NCBI GenBank assembly: GCA_031290885.1
Contig: JAISLQ010000059.1
Location: 1,514 to 65,513, forward strand
Direction of reading: 5' to 3'
Source of the DNA: Acidaminococcales bacterium
Lineage (GTDB): Bacteria; Bacillota; Negativicutes; Acidaminococcales; JAISLQ01
DNA: 64,000 nt
Position numbers and translations under genes: made by a program
The notes under the pieces: model-generated
What the model saw: the letters and a program-made list of their open reading frames with translations, nothing else
What the model was told of the DNA's origin: nothing
The model's database searches: none
Shown: positions 250 to 57,170 of the stretch, one piece after another
Layout of the letters: every line of letters begins with the position of its first letter
How positions within the stretch are numbered: position 1 is the stretch's first letter

Positions 250-325
<76 letters not shown>

Positions 326-33675: not shown

Positions 33676-33717
33676 AACTGGCCGCCCATGTCGGGCGGCA
33701 ACGAAAGAGGCGGGAAA

Positions 33718-34374
33718 ATGACGGCTTATCAGTGCCCTTTTTGCGGCCTGTCGCTGGCCATGAGCCAAGACACGTACGTTAATTATTTTCTCAATTTCCA
33801 TGATGTGACAAAATTTAAAAACAACGCGGCAGTTTGGAAACGGGACAACCTTACCTCTATCAAAGTTGCCTTCATCAAATGCCCGAACTGCAAAAAAGTC
33901 AGCATTTACGCCTTCGGGCACAGCAAAGATCTTGACGGCCTTTTTGTAAACATACACCCGCGCGCCAATTACGCCAAATATCCCGGATACATACCCGAAC
34001 AAATCACCTCCGACTACCAAGAGGCTTGTTCGGTGCTGGAATTCAGCGAAAGGGCGGCGGCCGCTTTAGCCAGGCGATGCCTGCGCGCCATAATAAGGGA
34101 TTACTGGGAAATAAACAAAGACACTTTGTATGAAGAGATCCGCGCCTTGCGCGAATTTGTCGATGCGGAGCTCTGGCAGGCCATCGACAGCATTTCCCAA
34201 CTTGGCGGCATCGGCGAGCGCATGAAACAGGCGGACGGCCTGCTGCTGGACGTTGACCCGCAGGAAGCGCAGAGGCTGATAAAGCTCGTGGAACTTTTGC
34301 TCAAAGAATGGTACGTCGCCCGGCATAACCGCGAAGCTATCTTTGAAGAAATAGTCAACATAGACCTTGAATGA
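33718..34374 (+). CDS. Zn-ribbon + DUF4145 domain protein
   Basis: N-terminal CPFCG...CPNC cysteine pairs are followed by a C-terminal helical region with a DUF4145-like pattern (SDYQEACSVLEFSERAAAALARRCLRAIIRD...). The ATG is preceded by AGAGG. This is the first gene of the AT-richer islet. Confidence 0.65.
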   Translation: MTAYQCPFCGLSLAMSQDTYVNYFLNFHDVTKFKNNAAVWKRDNLTSIKVAFIKCPNCKKVSIYAFGHSKDLDGLFVNIHPRANYAKYPGYIPEQITSDYQEACSVLEFSERAAAALARRCLRAIIRDYWEINKDTLYEEIRALREFVDAELWQAIDSISQLGGIGERMKQADGLLLDVDPQEAQRLIKLVELLLKEWYVARHNREAIFEEIVNIDLE

Positions 34375-34753
34375 TCCAAATACGGCGGTTGTCGTGATTA
34401 TGCACATCTCGAAATTCGCGGCGCAGGGGAACCGCGGGGACAGTACGCCGCACTCTATCGGCAGCTACGCCATCGCGGGGATTTTTCGCACCCTGTGGAC
34501 GCTTGGGCGGTTGAAAGACGAACAAGGCAAACCTACTAACCAACGCGCGCCGTGCGCCAGCAAAAATAACCATGCGGAATCCGGCCCGCCCGCGCTCTTG
34601 TTTGAACTTCACGGCGGTTTTCATTGGGACGGCGTGAACGCGGACATCTTCGCCGAGGATTTGTATTGTTCTTTTCGACCTTTTCATTGGTTTCTGCAAG
34701 AATGTGATAAAACAACGAAGCCACCTCCTGTGATTTGTTATGGTAAACGATAA
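34375..34753 (+). pseudogene. C-terminal remnant of a mobile-element AAA_25/RepA-like (RecA-fold) ATPase
   Basis: The ORF reads TAVVVIMHISKF...GSYAIAGIFRTLWTLGR...KNNHAESGPPALLFELHGGFHWDG. This matches the C-terminal half pattern of plasmid/ICE AAA_25 ATPases. No Walker A-containing N-terminus exists upstream, and the fragment starts exactly where the DUF4145 gene ends. Confidence 0.45.
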
Positions 34754-34769
34754 TAATTGTTACGCATAT

Positions 34770-35873
34770 CTAAATATTGCTCTTGCGCCTATTGCAATCA
34801 TCACAGAGCATTTGACAGTTATCGGCGGTCGTCTTGCCGCCCTTGCTCCATGGTGTTATATGGTCGGCTTGCATTGTTTCAATGGGAAAGGGCTTTTTGC
34901 ATGCCGGACATATGCCCTTTTGCCGCTCGTATGCCGTCCGCGCCATTTTCGGCGAGAAGGCGCGTATGCTCAAAAGGCGTTCCGCCTTCCTGTCCTCGCC
35001 GGATAGCAGATACTCGTAAATGCCGCTGAACTTGGTTATGTCGTCGTCCTGCATAAGCTCGGATATACGCGCTTCAAGCTGTTTTGGGTCGTACTTGCCC
35101 GCGCCGTGCCTGTTATAGAGAATACCCCATTCAAGCCCTTTCATTTCCTTGCGGTAGTTTGGGAACGTCGCTTTAACCCAATTTATGACGGTCTGGAAGT
35201 ATAGCCATAACTCGTTGCAATTCGTGTCGTGTTGATGAGCCGCCATATAATCTTCTATTTCGTCGCCGCCTTTCGCCGCAATCCAGCGTACGGCAGTTTC
35301 CAAATACTCTTGCCGTATCGGTGAGCCGCGCATGTAGTCGCTTGCGATGGCATATGCCGGACAAGCGTTTTTGCTGAAATACTTCTTGCTCTCGGTCAGC
35401 CATTCACCCGTATAGATGGCGTTGCGGCGTTCCTGCGCGGAAAGCTGTTCGCCTACCATATTGACGATTTCAAACCAGTCCAGTTTTTCCTTGTCCGTTC
35501 CTTCGCAGATGTAAACCATAAGGGGATAGGCTAAAATTTGCCCTTGCTCTGTCTTGGTCAGGTTGTCAAAGCCCATATGGTCAATGGAATAGTCACCGTT
35601 GATGTACTGGCAAATGCTGATTGTGCGCTGCTGCCCATCCAGCACTTCAAAATTGCCGTCGTCGGACAGCACCCAATACATAACATTGAGCGGAAAATCT
35701 TTTCGTACCGTGCGGATAACCTCGTCGCGTTGTTTATCCTTATAGATAAACTCGCGCTGAAAGGCAGGTCGAACATTTAGACGGCTGTTGTACCCCACGA
35801 CGCCGTTTTCCGCGCTGTCCTTGTACCCTGCGACAACCTCGCGGATTGGGATTTCATGCAGTTTGATTTTCAT
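34770..35873 (-). CDS. DUF262 (ParB/Srx-fold, DGQQR) - HNH endonuclease fusion protein
   Basis: The N-terminal DUF262 signature is RPAFQREFIY...LDGQQRTISI. The C-terminal zinc-finger HNH is CPACKKPF...ADHITPWSKGGKTTADNCQMLCDDCNRRKSN. Its ATG overlaps the stop of the methyltransferase gene (ATGA at 35870-35873). Confidence 0.85.
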   Translation of the reverse strand: MKIKLHEIPIREVVAGYKDSAENGVVGYNSRLNVRPAFQREFIYKDKQRDEVIRTVRKDFPLNVMYWVLSDDGNFEVLDGQQRTISICQYINGDYSIDHMGFDNLTKTEQGQILAYPLMVYICEGTDKEKLDWFEIVNMVGEQLSAQERRNAIYTGEWLTESKKYFSKNACPAYAIASDYMRGSPIRQEYLETAVRWIAAKGGDEIEDYMAAHQHDTNCNELWLYFQTVINWVKATFPNYRKEMKGLEWGILYNRHGAGKYDPKQLEARISELMQDDDITKFSGIYEYLLSGEDRKAERLLSIRAFSPKMARTAYERQKGICPACKKPFPIETMQADHITPWSKGGKTTADNCQMLCDDCNRRKSNI

Positions 35874-37111
35874 TGTGTAGACAAACTCCTTCTTCGTATT
35901 GTTATACGAGCATATGTTGTTCTCCCGTTGATTTTGCCGTCGTTGCTCTTAATCATTCCGGGTATTGATGTTGCGAATGAGCAGTCTCGCATACTTGCGT
36001 TCTCCGTTTGCTGCCGGGTGTCTATGCCCGTCGAATGAGTATGCGGAAGTACGGCTGTACGGCTGTACGGCTGTACGGCTGTGCCGTCCTCTGCTTTAAC
36101 ATTTTGTGAATAATCTGTGAACGAGTAGGTCAAGTCTTTGCCGTCATTGCCTTTTCGGAACGCGACAATCTCAAATTGTTCTGGATTATATTTATCCAGA
36201 AACGTAATCGGCACACCCATTACGCCGTAATAGTCGCATGGTATATCGGCGGTTTTATCCACATTTATTGCGTCGTAATTGTCGTATTTAGGGTAAACGT
36301 CGGGCGAATACGTTCTAAACAAAGCCATGTCCTCATGGCGTTTTTCTATGTCAAGATTGGTAAACCAGCAAATGTTACCCATGCGGCGCCATTTTTGCCC
36401 GTTTTCATCTATCTTGAAATCAGTCGCCTTTGCCTCGTAGTTGTCGGGAACGGCAAACCAATAATGACCGCTATTATAACCCAACCACAATCTGTTGGTA
36501 GCTATTAATGGAAATATTTCCTTGTAAGTAACTGCGTTCATGTTGCCTATGATGGCAAACGACTTTTCACATTCCATAAGTTGCGCTATATACTCACGAA
36601 AAAGTGAAAAGGGCGGGTTGGTGACGACTATATCCGCTTGCTTCAAAAGTTCAATGCATTCCGCGCTCCGAAAATCGCCGTCGCCTTGTAAAAGGGTTAG
36701 CACGTTCTTTTTGTTTCTCAACAGATATTCTACGTCGGCAAGCCCCACGCGCCCGTCGCCGGTTTCGTCTGTAACTTCGGCAATTTCGATTTTATATGGC
36801 TTTTTTTTGCCCGGTTCTGCTCCTGCGGCCATTTCCGCCCCGAATAGCGTCAACTGGGTATAAACAATCGGGGACGTTGCATAACACGTTGCTATGAGTT
36901 TTTTTAACCCCATCGAATTGAAGTTGATGGCGAAGTATTTGAAAAAGTTGCTTTCATAGGGGTCGTCGCAATTACATAATACGACTTTTCCTCTGAAATG
37001 CCCCTTGTAGTGTTTTAGTTCGCTCTCGATAAGCGAAAGTTGGGTATAAAATTCATCTTGCTTGTTTCTTGACGAATCATGCAGATTGCTGTTGCCCGCC
37101 TTTGCTGCCAT
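35870..37111 (-). CDS. EcoRI-methylase-family N6-adenine DNA methyltransferase
   Basis: It has the family-typical N-terminus (NKQDEFYTQL...VVLCNCDDPYESNFFKYF), the catalytic motif IVVTNPPFSLFREY, and the C-terminal GVPITFLDKYNPEQFEIV ... TYARITIRRR. It contains the 8-bp x4 repeat at 36049-36080. Confidence 0.85.
   Translation of the reverse strand: MAAKAGNSNLHDSSRNKQDEFYTQLSLIESELKHYKGHFRGKVVLCNCDDPYESNFFKYFAINFNSMGLKKLIATCYATSPIVYTQLTLFGAEMAAGAEPGKKKPYKIEIAEVTDETGDGRVGLADVEYLLRNKKNVLTLLQGDGDFRSAECIELLKQADIVVTNPPFSLFREYIAQLMECEKSFAIIGNMNAVTYKEIFPLIATNRLWLGYNSGHYWFAVPDNYEAKATDFKIDENGQKWRRMGNICWFTNLDIEKRHEDMALFRTYSPDVYPKYDNYDAINVDKTADIPCDYYGVMGVPITFLDKYNPEQFEIVAFRKGNDGKDLTYSFTDYSQNVKAEDGTAVQPYSRTAVLPHTHSTGIDTRQQTENASMRDCSFATSIPGMIKSNDGKINGRTTYARITIRRRSLSTQ
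36049..36080. repeat. perfect tandem repeat (GTACGGCT)x4 inside the methyltransferase gene
   Basis: Read directly from the sequence: four contiguous 8-nt units lie at 36049-36080 on the plus strand (AGCCGTAC x4 on the coding strand), encoding TAVQPYSRTAVLP. The unit length is not a multiple of 3. Confidence 0.95.
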
Positions 37112-37114
37112 TGG

Positions 37115-37321
37115 TTACTTGCCCCCGTGCATATTGGATTCTTTAGATTCACGCGCCGCCTTTGTCCTGCCATCAAGCGGCTTTTGTGTGCCCTTGGGAA
37201 TCACCCACATATCTGCCAACTTAGTTGCGCCGTTCACCTGCCCGTTATCGCATAGCGCTTGGACACGTCGCACTGTTATGCCCCATTCATCGGCAGCCTG
37301 TTTTGTGGTTATCCAATCCAT
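37115..37321 (-). CDS. small helix-turn-helix DNA-binding protein (excisionase/MerR-like HTH, 68 aa)
   Basis: MDWITTKQAADEWGITVRRVQALCDNGQV is a typical HTH_17-like motif. SD GAGGTG lies 5 nt upstream of ATG 37321. The stop is 3 nt before the methyltransferase ATG. Confidence 0.7.
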   Translation of the reverse strand: MDWITTKQAADEWGITVRRVQALCDNGQVNGATKLADMWVIPKGTQKPLDGRTKAARESKESNMHGGK

Positions 37322-37360
37322 CGTTTCACCTCGCGCCCCGACCATCCGACAACTCAATTC

Positions 37361-37395
37361 ATTATACAGCGTCACAACGAATAAAGAAAGGGCTT
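37361..37395 (-). promoter_or_regulatory. candidate extended -10 promoter for the HTH-MTase-nuclease operon
   Basis: The minus strand reads TGTATAAT (an extended -10, with TATAAT at plus 37361-37366). The -35 is weak (TTTCTT) at 17-nt spacing. The element lies about 35 nt upstream of the HTH start. Confidence 0.35.
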
Positions 37396-37477
37396 TTTTC
37401 TCCACGCCAAACTATGTCCTTGACAAACGCTCCCGAACGAACATGCAATGACCGGCGCCTGCCACGTCAGGGATTTT

Positions 37478-37537
37478 CCCGGACAAAGAGGGCGGGGCCC
37501 CCGCGATTTCGCGGGGGCCCCGCCCTCTTTGTCCGGG
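37478..37537. repeat. 60-bp perfect GC-rich palindrome (29-bp arms, 2-nt centre)
   Basis: CCCGGACAAAGAGGGCGGGGCCCCCGCGA-TT-TCGCGGGGGCCCCGCCCTCTTTGTCCGGG, read directly from the sequence. No U-tract follows on either side. Confidence 0.95.
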
Positions 37538-37785
37538 AACGGCCCGGGGGCATGGCCGAACCTGCCGCCCCAAAACCGCCGCTGGCACAGGAGCGTCTCT
37601 TTCTCCCCGTGCATAATTGTAGCACGGGCGGGATGCTTGTCGGTTTTCACGGCAGGTTCGGCAGGCAACACAATATAAAGAATGTTTCTTGGCATAAATA
37701 GAAAAAACCAGCCGACAAGCTGTTTGCGTATTTCGTGCGCGCCGGACAGTCGCTCAAATGGAGGTGGGGTTTTTCCGAGCCGCGT

Positions 37786-56825: not shown

Positions 56826-57004
56826 ATAGATATGGGAATCTCTTGTGGTTGCTTGCGGCGCTACGCTGGATCTTTTTCCGCCCGTAGGCCGATGCCATGC
56901 CATACGGAAAAATCCTCTGCCGCAATGTCCGCAGGCAGCTATTGAATGTTCCCTGAAGCCGCCCGAAAAAGGCGCGGCGACAATTAAACAGCGTGGCATG
57001 AAGG

Positions 57005-57170
57005 CCAAGGGAGAGATCGCGGCCGCAGGCTAAAGCCGGCGGCTGCGGCGCCGAAGGAGCAAGCCCTTTGTTCAGTCTCTCAGGCAAAAAGGACCTTGGC
57101 CCGACCAATCTCTTGAGAGCGCACAGCCGTGCCGCCGAAGGGGTAATCTCTCAGGCAAAAAGACAGAGGC
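57005..57170 (+). promoter_or_regulatory. tandem glycine riboswitch (two aptamers)
   Basis: Aptamer 1 runs CCAAGGGAGAG...GCGCCGAAGGAGCAA...TCTCTCAGGCAAAAAGGACCTTGG. Aptamer 2 runs CTCTTGAGAGCG...GCCGCCGAAGGGGTAA TCTCTCAGGCAAAAAGACAG. Both match the conserved glycine-aptamer cores. The element sits upstream of gcvT. Confidence 0.9.

Follow-up and report, generated by a model that had tools for sequence, protein, structure and literature searches.

What a methylase gene and a nuclease gene that overlap by a few nucleotides do together, and what is the meaning of a short repeat in the 3' part of the methylase gene, are the questions raised by a minus-strand locus (34770-37321) of Acidaminococcales bacterium (assembly GCA_031290885.1, contig JAISLQ010000059.1). 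The stretch of this contig analyzed here, referred to as the window, is 64 kb long, and gene coordinates within it are based on the list of its open reading frames (ORFs) and their translations. The locus encodes an EcoRI-family adenine methylase and an endonuclease in which a DUF262 domain is joined to an HNH domain, with a small helix-turn-helix (HTH) gene upstream. A previous sequence-only reading had proposed that it is a candidate undescribed defence module. We have found that the locus is a methylase-linked restriction module, that the gene pair is a member of a catalogued but mechanistically unstudied family, and that the most unusual feature of the locus, which had been overlooked, is the repeat together with three overlapping alternative C-termini of the methylase. 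On balance it is probable that the locus is a two-gene restriction-modification (R-M) cassette of a large, horizontally moving family, in which the methylase is switched between three frames and a generic nuclease depends on the methylase.

Results

The first of the paired genes (35870..37111, minus strand) encodes an N6-adenine DNA methyltransferase of the EcoRI family, 413 aa long in its present frame, which is termed frame c below. It was matched by the Pfam family EcoRI_methylase (PF13651) at 3.6e-147, with 490.6 bits vs a cut-off of 26.4, and by the PADLOC model MTase_II (PDLC03297) at 8.4e-130. The NPPF catalytic motif lies at aa 165-168 (36608..36619, minus strand), and N165, P166, P167 and F168 are invariant in the methylase alignment, in agreement with the family to which the sequence-only reading had assigned the protein. 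The second gene (34770..35873, minus strand) codes for a 367-aa endonuclease, as identified from the ORF list, Pfam and PADLOC. It contains a DUF262/GmrSD_N domain of the ParB/Srx-fold NTPase type (aa 34-154; 35412..35774, minus strand; PF03235, 1.5e-16), in which D79, G80, Q81, Q82 and R83 of the DGQQR motif (35625-35639, minus strand) are invariant in the nuclease alignment, and a zinc-finger HNH nuclease domain (aa 322-366; 34776..34910, minus strand; Pfam, 4.7e-14), with a catalytic D337-H338 predicted from the sequence around 34860-34865 (minus strand). The C-terminal domain is PF01844/PF14279 HNH, and the Pfam scan of the nuclease found no DUF1524, bearing out the earlier statement that DUF262 is joined here to a canonical zinc HNH instead of DUF1524. 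The other motifs that had been named, LDGQQRT, CPAC, DHITPW and CDDCNRRKSN in the nuclease, are likewise present.

The description of the locus as three co-oriented, tightly spaced minus-strand genes also agrees with the ORF list. The stop of the HTH gene ends at 37115, leaving 3 nt before the methylase ATG, which begins at 37111, and the methylase TGA (35872-35870) overlaps the nuclease ATG (35873-35871). The ORF positions and the gaps in related loci suggest that the resulting ATGA stop/start overlap (35870..35873, minus strand) is a point of translational coupling. The two genes, which overlap by 4 nt, form the adjacent MTase_II and REase_II pair by which PADLOC defines Type II systems, with REase_II (PDLC03418) matching residues 1-366 of the nuclease to model positions 1-371/372 at 2.1e-138. 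The module can thus no longer be called undescribed, as full-length Type II models exist for both proteins and a published system, BanLI, has a matching description; the novelty that had been proposed hinged on close homologues not being catalogued as R-M, and by way of the PADLOC models they largely are. The REase_II and MTase_II models are presumably derived from REBASE.

The pair is widespread. Nuclease homologues 77-88% identical to the window protein filled the best 120 matches and came from Clostridia, Negativicutes, Armatimonadota and others. Contigs representing one genome per species held 490 nuclease relatives, clustering at 50% identity gave 489 nuclease clusters with E <= 1e-30, and methylase homologues number in the thousands. 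The nuclease is carried by 72 plasmid records from Proteobacteria, Actinobacteria, Firmicutes and Bacteroidota, in which the Prokaryotic Genome Annotation Pipeline names the neighbors 'DUF262 domain-containing protein' and 'adenine-specific methyltransferase EcoRI family protein'. Eighty related loci were retrieved (labeled L0xx; representative proteins are labeled P0xxx). Directly upstream of the nuclease, a co-oriented EcoRI-family methylase was found in about 70 of the 76 testable loci, those with enough upstream DNA, L002 and L074 being exceptions, and in nearly all related loci its stop falls between -20 and +10 nt from the nuclease ATG. This recurrent order of abutting genes shows a pairing far beyond chance, and the neighborhood survey, extending over many phyla and plasmids, confirms that methylase and nuclease are conserved together. 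Two representative proteins, P0259 (688 aa) and P0383 (515 aa), are single ORFs joining EcoRI_methylase, DUF262 and HNH. The flanking genes of related loci are heterogeneous housekeeping genes with an occasional resolvase, integrase, TerL or MobA, which argues for a self-contained, self-mobile R-M cassette. No second methylase family recurs among the neighbors of related loci, and no sspABCD or dndABCDE genes were found among the neighbors in the window or in related loci.

Within the methylase ORF the coding strand carries a perfect octanucleotide repeat, (ACAGCCGT) x4.25, at 36049..36082 (minus strand), which was reported by Tandem Repeats Finder with a period of 8, 4.2 copies and a 100% match. 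It is the sole perfect repeat (unit 2-12, >=16 nt) in the window. Since a unit of 8 nt is not a multiple of 3, the repeat is a candidate frame switch. In simulation, the four units present now give the 413-aa protein, whose frame c tail ..SFATSIPGMIKSNDGKINGRTTYARITIRRRSLSTQ (35870..36046, minus strand; also seen in the ORF) ends at the stop overlapping the nuclease ATG. Loss of one unit, leaving three, gives a 384-aa protein with the frame b tail ..ANGERKYARLLIRNINTRND (35949..36047, minus strand) and a stop 75 nt upstream of that ATG, and gain of one unit, making five, gives a 365-aa protein with the frame a tail ..PYFRILIRRA (36022..36048, minus strand) and a stop 148 nt upstream. Frame c is the only window frame with a stop that overlaps the nuclease ATG. 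An ancestral (AG)n tract has decayed in the window copy (..AAAGCAGAGGACGGC..), and the octamer is derived from the neighboring RTVQPY-coding sequence. For the window lineage no exact nuclease match is on record, and the repeat pattern anchored in its flanks had no metagenome match; 16 metagenome matches to the bare octamer repeat were unrelated loci. The frame switch is strongly supported for the family, and for the window copy it is plausible but unproven.

The support from the family is as follows. At the position equivalent to the window repeat, 18 loci carry (AG)9-28, (GACA)n, (AGCA)n or (ACAG)n, and the (GACA)n tract of Selenomonas flueggei ATCC 43531 (L046) is 130 nt long. At the same position L014 has (AG)6 and L047 G9, and in L015 the position is taken up by a run of N; with these three, the tract-bearing loci come to roughly a quarter of the related loci. 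Two further isolates with the tract are Oscillibacter valericigenes An907 and Catenisphaera adipataccumulans DSM 25799. The tract-bearing loci are those whose methylase had been broken up by tblastn into matches lying in different frames. Behind the tract all three frames are open, and every one of them closes with Y-x-R-[ILMV]-x-[ILV]-[RK] followed by a stop within a few codons. In a short class of loci, to which the window belongs, only the last 12-60 residues distinguish the three tails; frame a ends in ..RTVQPYFRILIRRK, frame b in ..VIRPVLNGKKLYRRITIR or ..ANGERAYVxGxRKYARxLIR, and frame c in ..SFATSIPGMIKNAEGKINGKxTYARITIRRK. In a long class (L012, L022, L024, L025, L038 and L046) a complete alternative module is present in each frame, made up of GVPITFLDKYNPDQFEIxG, a variable segment of 25-60 aa, and YxRIxIRRK.

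The terminal motif followed by a stop was found in all three frames of all 15 testable repeat-bearing loci. Among 56 repeat-less loci it was found in one frame in 42, in none in 10, in two frames in 2 and in three frames in 2; the last two are L014 and L015, in which the repeat is short or masked, and one of the two-frame loci has a G9 tract. Not one of 1420 shuffles had the motif in three frames. The mean identity of the terminal elements was 0.87 for type a (24 homologues of this type), 0.59 for type b, which comprises two subtypes, and 0.82 for type c (terminal 29 aa). These values lie close to the 0.85 of the catalytic domain, whereas the linkers that separate the tract from the terminal element have values of no more than 0.39-0.46 (0.46 in type c). 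The DNA that codes for PYFRILIRR in frame a reads AVLPHTHS or RTSAYS in the other frames, and which of these leads to which ending varies between lineages; the constraint on this DNA therefore comes from frame a itself. As all three frames end in a conserved element typical of the family, the switch is three-way, between complete methylases, and not ON/OFF.

Other tracts were seen within methylase genes of the family. G9 tracts lie about 273 nt (L047) and about 640 nt (L044) upstream of the nuclease ATG, and L047 has two alternative C-terminal modules in two frames, indicating that a homopolymer version of the frame switch exists. In L048, (CA)13 was seen in the methylase gene about 793 nt before the nuclease ATG, and thus in the 5' half of the gene; unlike at the 3' tracts, the other frames stop quickly, and it may be a conventional ON/OFF tract. 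Tandem methylases of the same family were found only in L003, L009, L066 and L068, with different C-terminal modules, and some module types occur both as alternative frames of one gene and as C-termini of tandem methylases (L003 M1/M2, L009). L003 (3432-7116; JAISYH010000013.1, a metagenome-assembled genome labeled Burkholderiales) has the order HTH-M1-M2-R and is the closest relative of the window arrangement. Its M1 and M2 are almost identical over the first 200-290 residues and differ in their C-terminal modules, and the duplication takes in the 3' end of the HTH gene.

Repeat length was shown to vary between otherwise identical sequences of the family. L081 and L083, metagenome contigs from different Hadza gut samples with identical flanking genes, were aligned over 6200 bp with 0 mismatches and a single 2-nt gap, (AG)7 in one and (AG)8 in the other, and their methylases are a 423-aa c form and a 399-aa b form. 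Of the 120 closest methylase homologues, (ER)n is present in 97, and their lengths rise in two-residue steps (395/397/399/401/403 and 421/423/.../431), the increment that three additional AG units would give. Tail type c was found in 43 of the closest homologues, b in at least 33 and a in 26. Lineages that are >=95% identical over the first 300 aa hold all three tail types, as seen in one lineage of 24 (6 a, 15 b, 2 c), one of 13 (3, 8, 2) and one of 7 (1, 2, 4).

The identity of nucleases was found to be correlated with the identity of the N-terminal 310 aa of the methylases (Spearman rho = 0.62, 1275 pairs) and not with that of the C-terminal modules (rho = 0.00, p = 0.93, 1711 pairs), the latter being compared by pairwise identity of the module cores. 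Single-linkage clustering of the modules was uninformative, as the shared terminal motif links everything. Nucleases that are 88-93% identical are paired with C-terminal modules that are only 7-16% identical, and the nuclease has no hypervariable segment (block conservation 0.61-0.94, with the minimum at residues 256-300). Since the nuclease covaries with the catalytic domain of the methylase and not with its C-terminal module, it is probably generic and dependent on the methylase, in a Type III-like logic. The nuclease also gave weak PADLOC matches to mREase_IV (3.7e-6), NsnA and PD-T4-2_A. Its closest solved relatives, for the HNH domain only, are the Gme HNH nickase 4h9d (about 3e-7) and McrA 6ghc; sequence and profile searches of the PDB gave no match for the methylase and none for the DUF262 domain, so that no solved DUF262 structure was matched. 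AlphaFold2 models had a mean predicted local distance difference test score of 53.9 for the nuclease and 55.4 for the methylase, with the methylase C-terminus below 50. Because of this low confidence the tails could not be placed relative to DNA, and no fold search was justified.

The frames also differ in the site of their stop. The longest frame alone runs as far as the nuclease ATG (-20 to +10 nt), and it does so in all repeat-bearing loci. The stop of the medium frame precedes the ATG by 38-79 nt in short-class loci and by 116-306 nt in long-class loci, and that of the shortest frame by 126-174 nt and 355-490 nt, respectively. A Shine-Dalgarno core of >=4 nt is absent before the nuclease ATG in about half of the loci, suggesting that translation of the nuclease may depend on ribosomes arriving in frame c. 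In the window, AGGAG lies 12 nt upstream of this ATG.

The small HTH gene upstream of the pair (37115..37321, minus strand) encodes a 68-aa Xis/HTH_17-like protein, as judged from the ORF, a sub-threshold Pfam match and PHROGs. Its ORF spans 37115-37405, and the conserved part begins at the ATG at 37321, which is preceded by GAGGTG. The protein matches HTH_17 at 5.8e-4, below the Pfam cut-off, and the PHROGs excisionase family phrog_2655 at 1.5e-6. It had been suggested that it could act as a C-protein-like controller, a suggestion that does not sit well with a protein that is Xis/HTH_17-like rather than Cro/C1-like and is not a conserved part of the module: a homologue (65% identity, same position, same 3-nt spacing) was found in just one of the 80 loci, L003. 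In 5-9 of 62 other loci, e.g. L081, unrelated small Cro/C1-type HTH genes (HTH_26, HTH_3 or HTH_31) lie upstream. The upstream HTH position is thus recurrent but the protein is not; the window HTH gene is lineage-specific, and it may regulate the operon. A putative extended -10 box, TGTATAAT, was noticed by eye upstream of the HTH gene (37361..37368, minus strand). A promoter scan did not call it, and promoter-like sites were not in excess.

The AT-richer islet in which the locus had been placed is real, with a GC content of 0.45-0.49 at 35-37 kb vs 0.53-0.62 in the flanks. It is flanked by a DUF362 gene on one side and by the housekeeping run yacP-rlmB-thyX-cysS on the other, in which rlmB, thyX and cysS were assigned by eye from ORF translations. 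A 228-aa gene at 33688-34374 (plus strand) adjoins the R-M pair and matches the PADLOC single-gene defence candidate PD-T7-4 (6.1e-14) and phrog_1305 'DNA binding protein' of PHROGs (5.8e-26). It has in addition a weak DUF4145 match and a zinc-ribbon-like CxxC...CxxC at its N-terminus, and with the R-M pair it forms a small defence islet bounded by the DUF362 gene and yacP. Between this gene and the nuclease, overlapping ORFs of 128 aa (plus strand) and 114 aa (minus strand) occupy 34355-34753. The sequence-only reading had described mobile-element debris next to the module; these ORFs gave no match in Pfam (E up to 10), PHROGs, PADLOC, NCBIfam or the plasmid collection, and the debris was not confirmed. 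By eye the plus-strand ORF resembles the C-terminal part of a mobile-element RecA-like replicative ATPase, a likeness that no tool supported. At the DNA level the islet was shared with no plasmid of the plasmid collection.

Between the HTH gene and yacP lies a 64-nt palindrome (37476-37539), formed by a perfect inverted repeat of 31 nt around a 2-nt center (TTCCCGGACAAAGAGGGCGGGGCCCCCGCGA / TCGCGGGGGCCCCGCCCTCTTTGTCCGGGAA), which has no second copy in the window and may mark the boundary of the islet or act as a bidirectional terminator. The islet is placed where plus-strand and minus-strand gene blocks converge, and cumulative GC skew has its maximum near 35 kb and its minimum near 49 kb, matching the changes in gene orientation. 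Elsewhere the window holds a glycine riboswitch aptamer (56998-57106, plus strand, 57.5 bits) and a tRNA-Ala(GGC) gene (250-325, minus strand), both ordinary and unrelated to the R-M finding.

Discussion

In the mechanism that we favor, the C-terminal modules would set or tune target recognition by the methylase, the role that C-terminal recognition domains have in adenine methylases of the gamma type. The nuclease would attack DNA that lacks the mark and would have no matched sequence specificity of its own, with its DUF262 domain supplying an NTP-dependent step. A nuclease without matched specificity would tolerate switching only if it is methylase-dependent; it might be kept harmless during switching either because the methylase serves as its targeting partner or through coupled translation. 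Such a system would rebuild the Mod-Res logic of Type III enzymes from unrelated parts, an EcoRI-family methylase standing in for Mod and a ParB/Srx-type NTPase with an HNH domain for Res. The window gene is at present in the nuclease-coupled frame, from which one additional unit would lead to the short form and one unit fewer to the medium form. It is possible, and we suggest this tentatively, that the family represents an unrecognized R-M class now filed as Type II, in which an NTP-dependent generic nuclease is guided by an EcoRI-family methylase marking a single strand at an asymmetric site, and three tails give three specificities that cycle without a lethal gap.

According to the main rival, the system is of the classical Type II or IIS kind: the nuclease would have a fixed site of its own, the tails would share one specificity and protect in every frame, and the frame would set translation of the nuclease, so that restriction would be phase-variable. 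The Type II labels that PADLOC gives to both proteins speak for it, as do the abutment of the longest frame alone with the nuclease ATG in every repeat-bearing locus, the weak or absent Shine-Dalgarno sequence in about half of the loci, and the short-class tails, that of the window included, which differ only in their last 12-60 residues. A single specificity is hard to reconcile with the long-class loci, which hold three complete unrelated modules, some of them seen in tandem methylases. It also has to account for near-identical nucleases that stand beside unrelated modules, for a nuclease without a variable region able to track specificity, and for the folding result, in which no RNA structure was detected that would tie nuclease translation to upstream ribosomes. 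We consider this rival somewhat doubtful. A simple ON/OFF phase variation of the methylase, similar to that of phasevarions, would make the endings in the other frames relics or chance products. Tracts inside mod genes are the standard ON/OFF device of Type III and Type I systems (PMC5909438, PMC7383803). Such an explanation appears improbable, considering the motif in all three frames of 15/15 repeat-bearing loci vs 0/1420 shuffles, terminal elements in each frame that are about as conserved as the catalytic domain when the linkers are not, and several unrelated repeat types that arose at one position; moreover, an OFF methylase beside an intact Type II nuclease would be self-toxic.

The sequence-only reading had left two options, a nuclease held in check by the cognate methylation, which fits much better, and a Type IV enzyme travelling with an unrelated methylase, against which the co-conservation speaks. 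In the latter case a modification-dependent, GmrSD/BrxU-like nuclease would be accompanied by a protective or orphan methylase. It is true that the N-terminal DUF262 domain is common to GmrSD, BrxU and SspE (PMC4619093) and that weak PADLOC matches to mREase_IV, NsnA and PD-T4-2_A were obtained. Nonetheless, gene order and abutment are strictly conserved across phyla, the nuclease covaries with the catalytic domain of the methylase, P0259 and P0383 join the two proteins, and the C-terminal domain is PF01844 HNH and not DUF1524. An m6A (N6-methyladenine)-dependent nuclease coupled to an m6A methylase would in addition be self-toxic, and we regard a Type IV system as very unlikely. Just as remote is a function in mobile elements or phages, be it an HNH packaging or homing nuclease with an anti-restriction methylase or a plasmid addiction module. 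The pair is frequent on small plasmids, a few of its neighbors encode TerL, resolvase, integrase or MobA, it was met on one fecal phage contig, and the local HTH protein is excisionase-like. Most flanks, however, are housekeeping genes, near full-length matches were found in only 4 of 50,697 phage records, and plasmid stabilization, being a known side effect of ordinary R-M, is compatible with restriction.

Several observations weigh against the three-frame, methylase-dependent system that we favor. With its (AG)n tract decayed, the window copy may effectively be locked; its repeat has just four units, and no second copy of the window lineage was found that shows length variation. That the C-terminal modules are target-recognition elements is what we infer. 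P0259 and P0383 may be true fusions or else artefacts of a frameshift where the stop and start overlap. The intact nucleases of L002 and L074 have no adjoining methylase, which fits methylase dependence but could also have come about by decay. RNA folding around the window nuclease start gave no significant structure (z = -0.17), so that occlusion of the ribosome-binding site is not supported and frame-dependent translation of the nuclease is unproven. The link to BanLI was made by description only, with no Bifidobacterium record among the GC-rich 43.5-kDa representatives or the P0306 homologues.

If a single tract chooses between three complete and conserved C-termini, methylation and restriction would gain a compact new route to diversity; such tracts are common in gut Clostridia. 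The public label 'DUF262 domain-containing protein' hides the part of the family in defence and in barriers to transformation. If the nuclease does need both the methylase and an NTP, the ParB/Srx NTPase fold would be extended to the restriction of unmodified DNA, and the puzzling one-strand methylation by BanLI would be explained. On the practical side, DNA meant for recalcitrant anaerobes could be pre-methylated with locked-frame methylases before transformation.

Comparison with known systems

Known phase-variable methylases either work as ON/OFF switches (Type III, some Type I, one Type IIG) or form recombination shufflons. In a non-exhaustive literature search, which included surveys of repeats in Type I and III systems and a 2026 review of phase-variable methylases, we found no description of the gene pair as a class, no evidence of a generic nuclease, and no methylase switch with three-frame alternative tails. 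BanLI of Bifidobacterium animalis subsp. lactis very probably belongs to the family of the window pair, a match that rests on the published description and not on sequence. M.BanLI, a 41.7 kDa protein that was aligned to M.EcoRI by the authors, methylates one strand of the asymmetric RTC(m6A)GG, and the next gene, banLI.R, encodes a 43.5-kDa protein (O'Connell Motherway et al. 2014, PMC3990576). The cloned pair reduced P1vir plaquing about ten-fold in E. coli, a weak yet measurable restriction, and it was proposed that BanLI is an incomplete Type IIS system that has lost a second methylase (PMC3990576). The corresponding Type II enzyme in REBASE is the product of a gene annotated 'DUF262 domain-containing protein' (PMC13091528). 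Like the window pair, BanLI thus has an EcoRI-like methylase followed by a DUF262 restriction gene, the m6A mark and proteins of similar size; unlike in the window family, no repeat tract or alternative tails have been reported for it. As one methylase with one nuclease was found to be the normal complete unit in our survey, we differ from the view that a second methylase was lost.

The window methylase shares with M.EcoRI the Pfam family PF13651 and the N-terminal DEFYT and NPPF motifs, but the window nuclease is unrelated to R.EcoRI, and the C-terminal region of the window methylase is modular and variable. With GmrSD, BrxU and SspE the nuclease shares an N-terminal DUF262 domain with DGQQR, a helical linker and a His-Me-finger nuclease. 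Those enzymes are NTP-stimulated and sense the modification state of DNA (PMC4619093, PMC12707154). The window nuclease differs from them in ending in a zinc HNH (PF01844) and not in DUF1524, in being about 200-300 residues shorter, and in belonging to a family that is paired with a cognate adenine methylase (about 70/76 loci).

The use of alternative recognition modules, chosen stochastically, with constant catalytic and restriction subunits resembles the specificity switching of Type I systems, such as the hsdS inversions of SpnIII and the hsdS poly-G tract of NgoAV; in the window family, however, the choice would be made by reading frame within one methylase gene, without recombination or truncation of a separate subunit. 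The closest likeness in logic is to Type III R-M (EcoP15I; the ModA, ModH and ModM phasevarions), in which the methylase gene likewise comes first, the nuclease gene abuts it, repeats lie inside the methylase gene, and a constant NTPase-plus-nuclease subunit is paired with a methylase that exchanges its recognition module between alleles. Should BanLI belong to the family, methylation of one strand of an asymmetric site would be a further likeness, and it fits the Type III-like logic. Nevertheless the parts are different, EcoRI_methylase in place of Mod and DUF262 with HNH in place of a superfamily 2 helicase with PD-(D/E)xK, and the repeat of the window family lies in the 3' part of the gene, where it selects among three complete C-termini instead of turning the methylase OFF.

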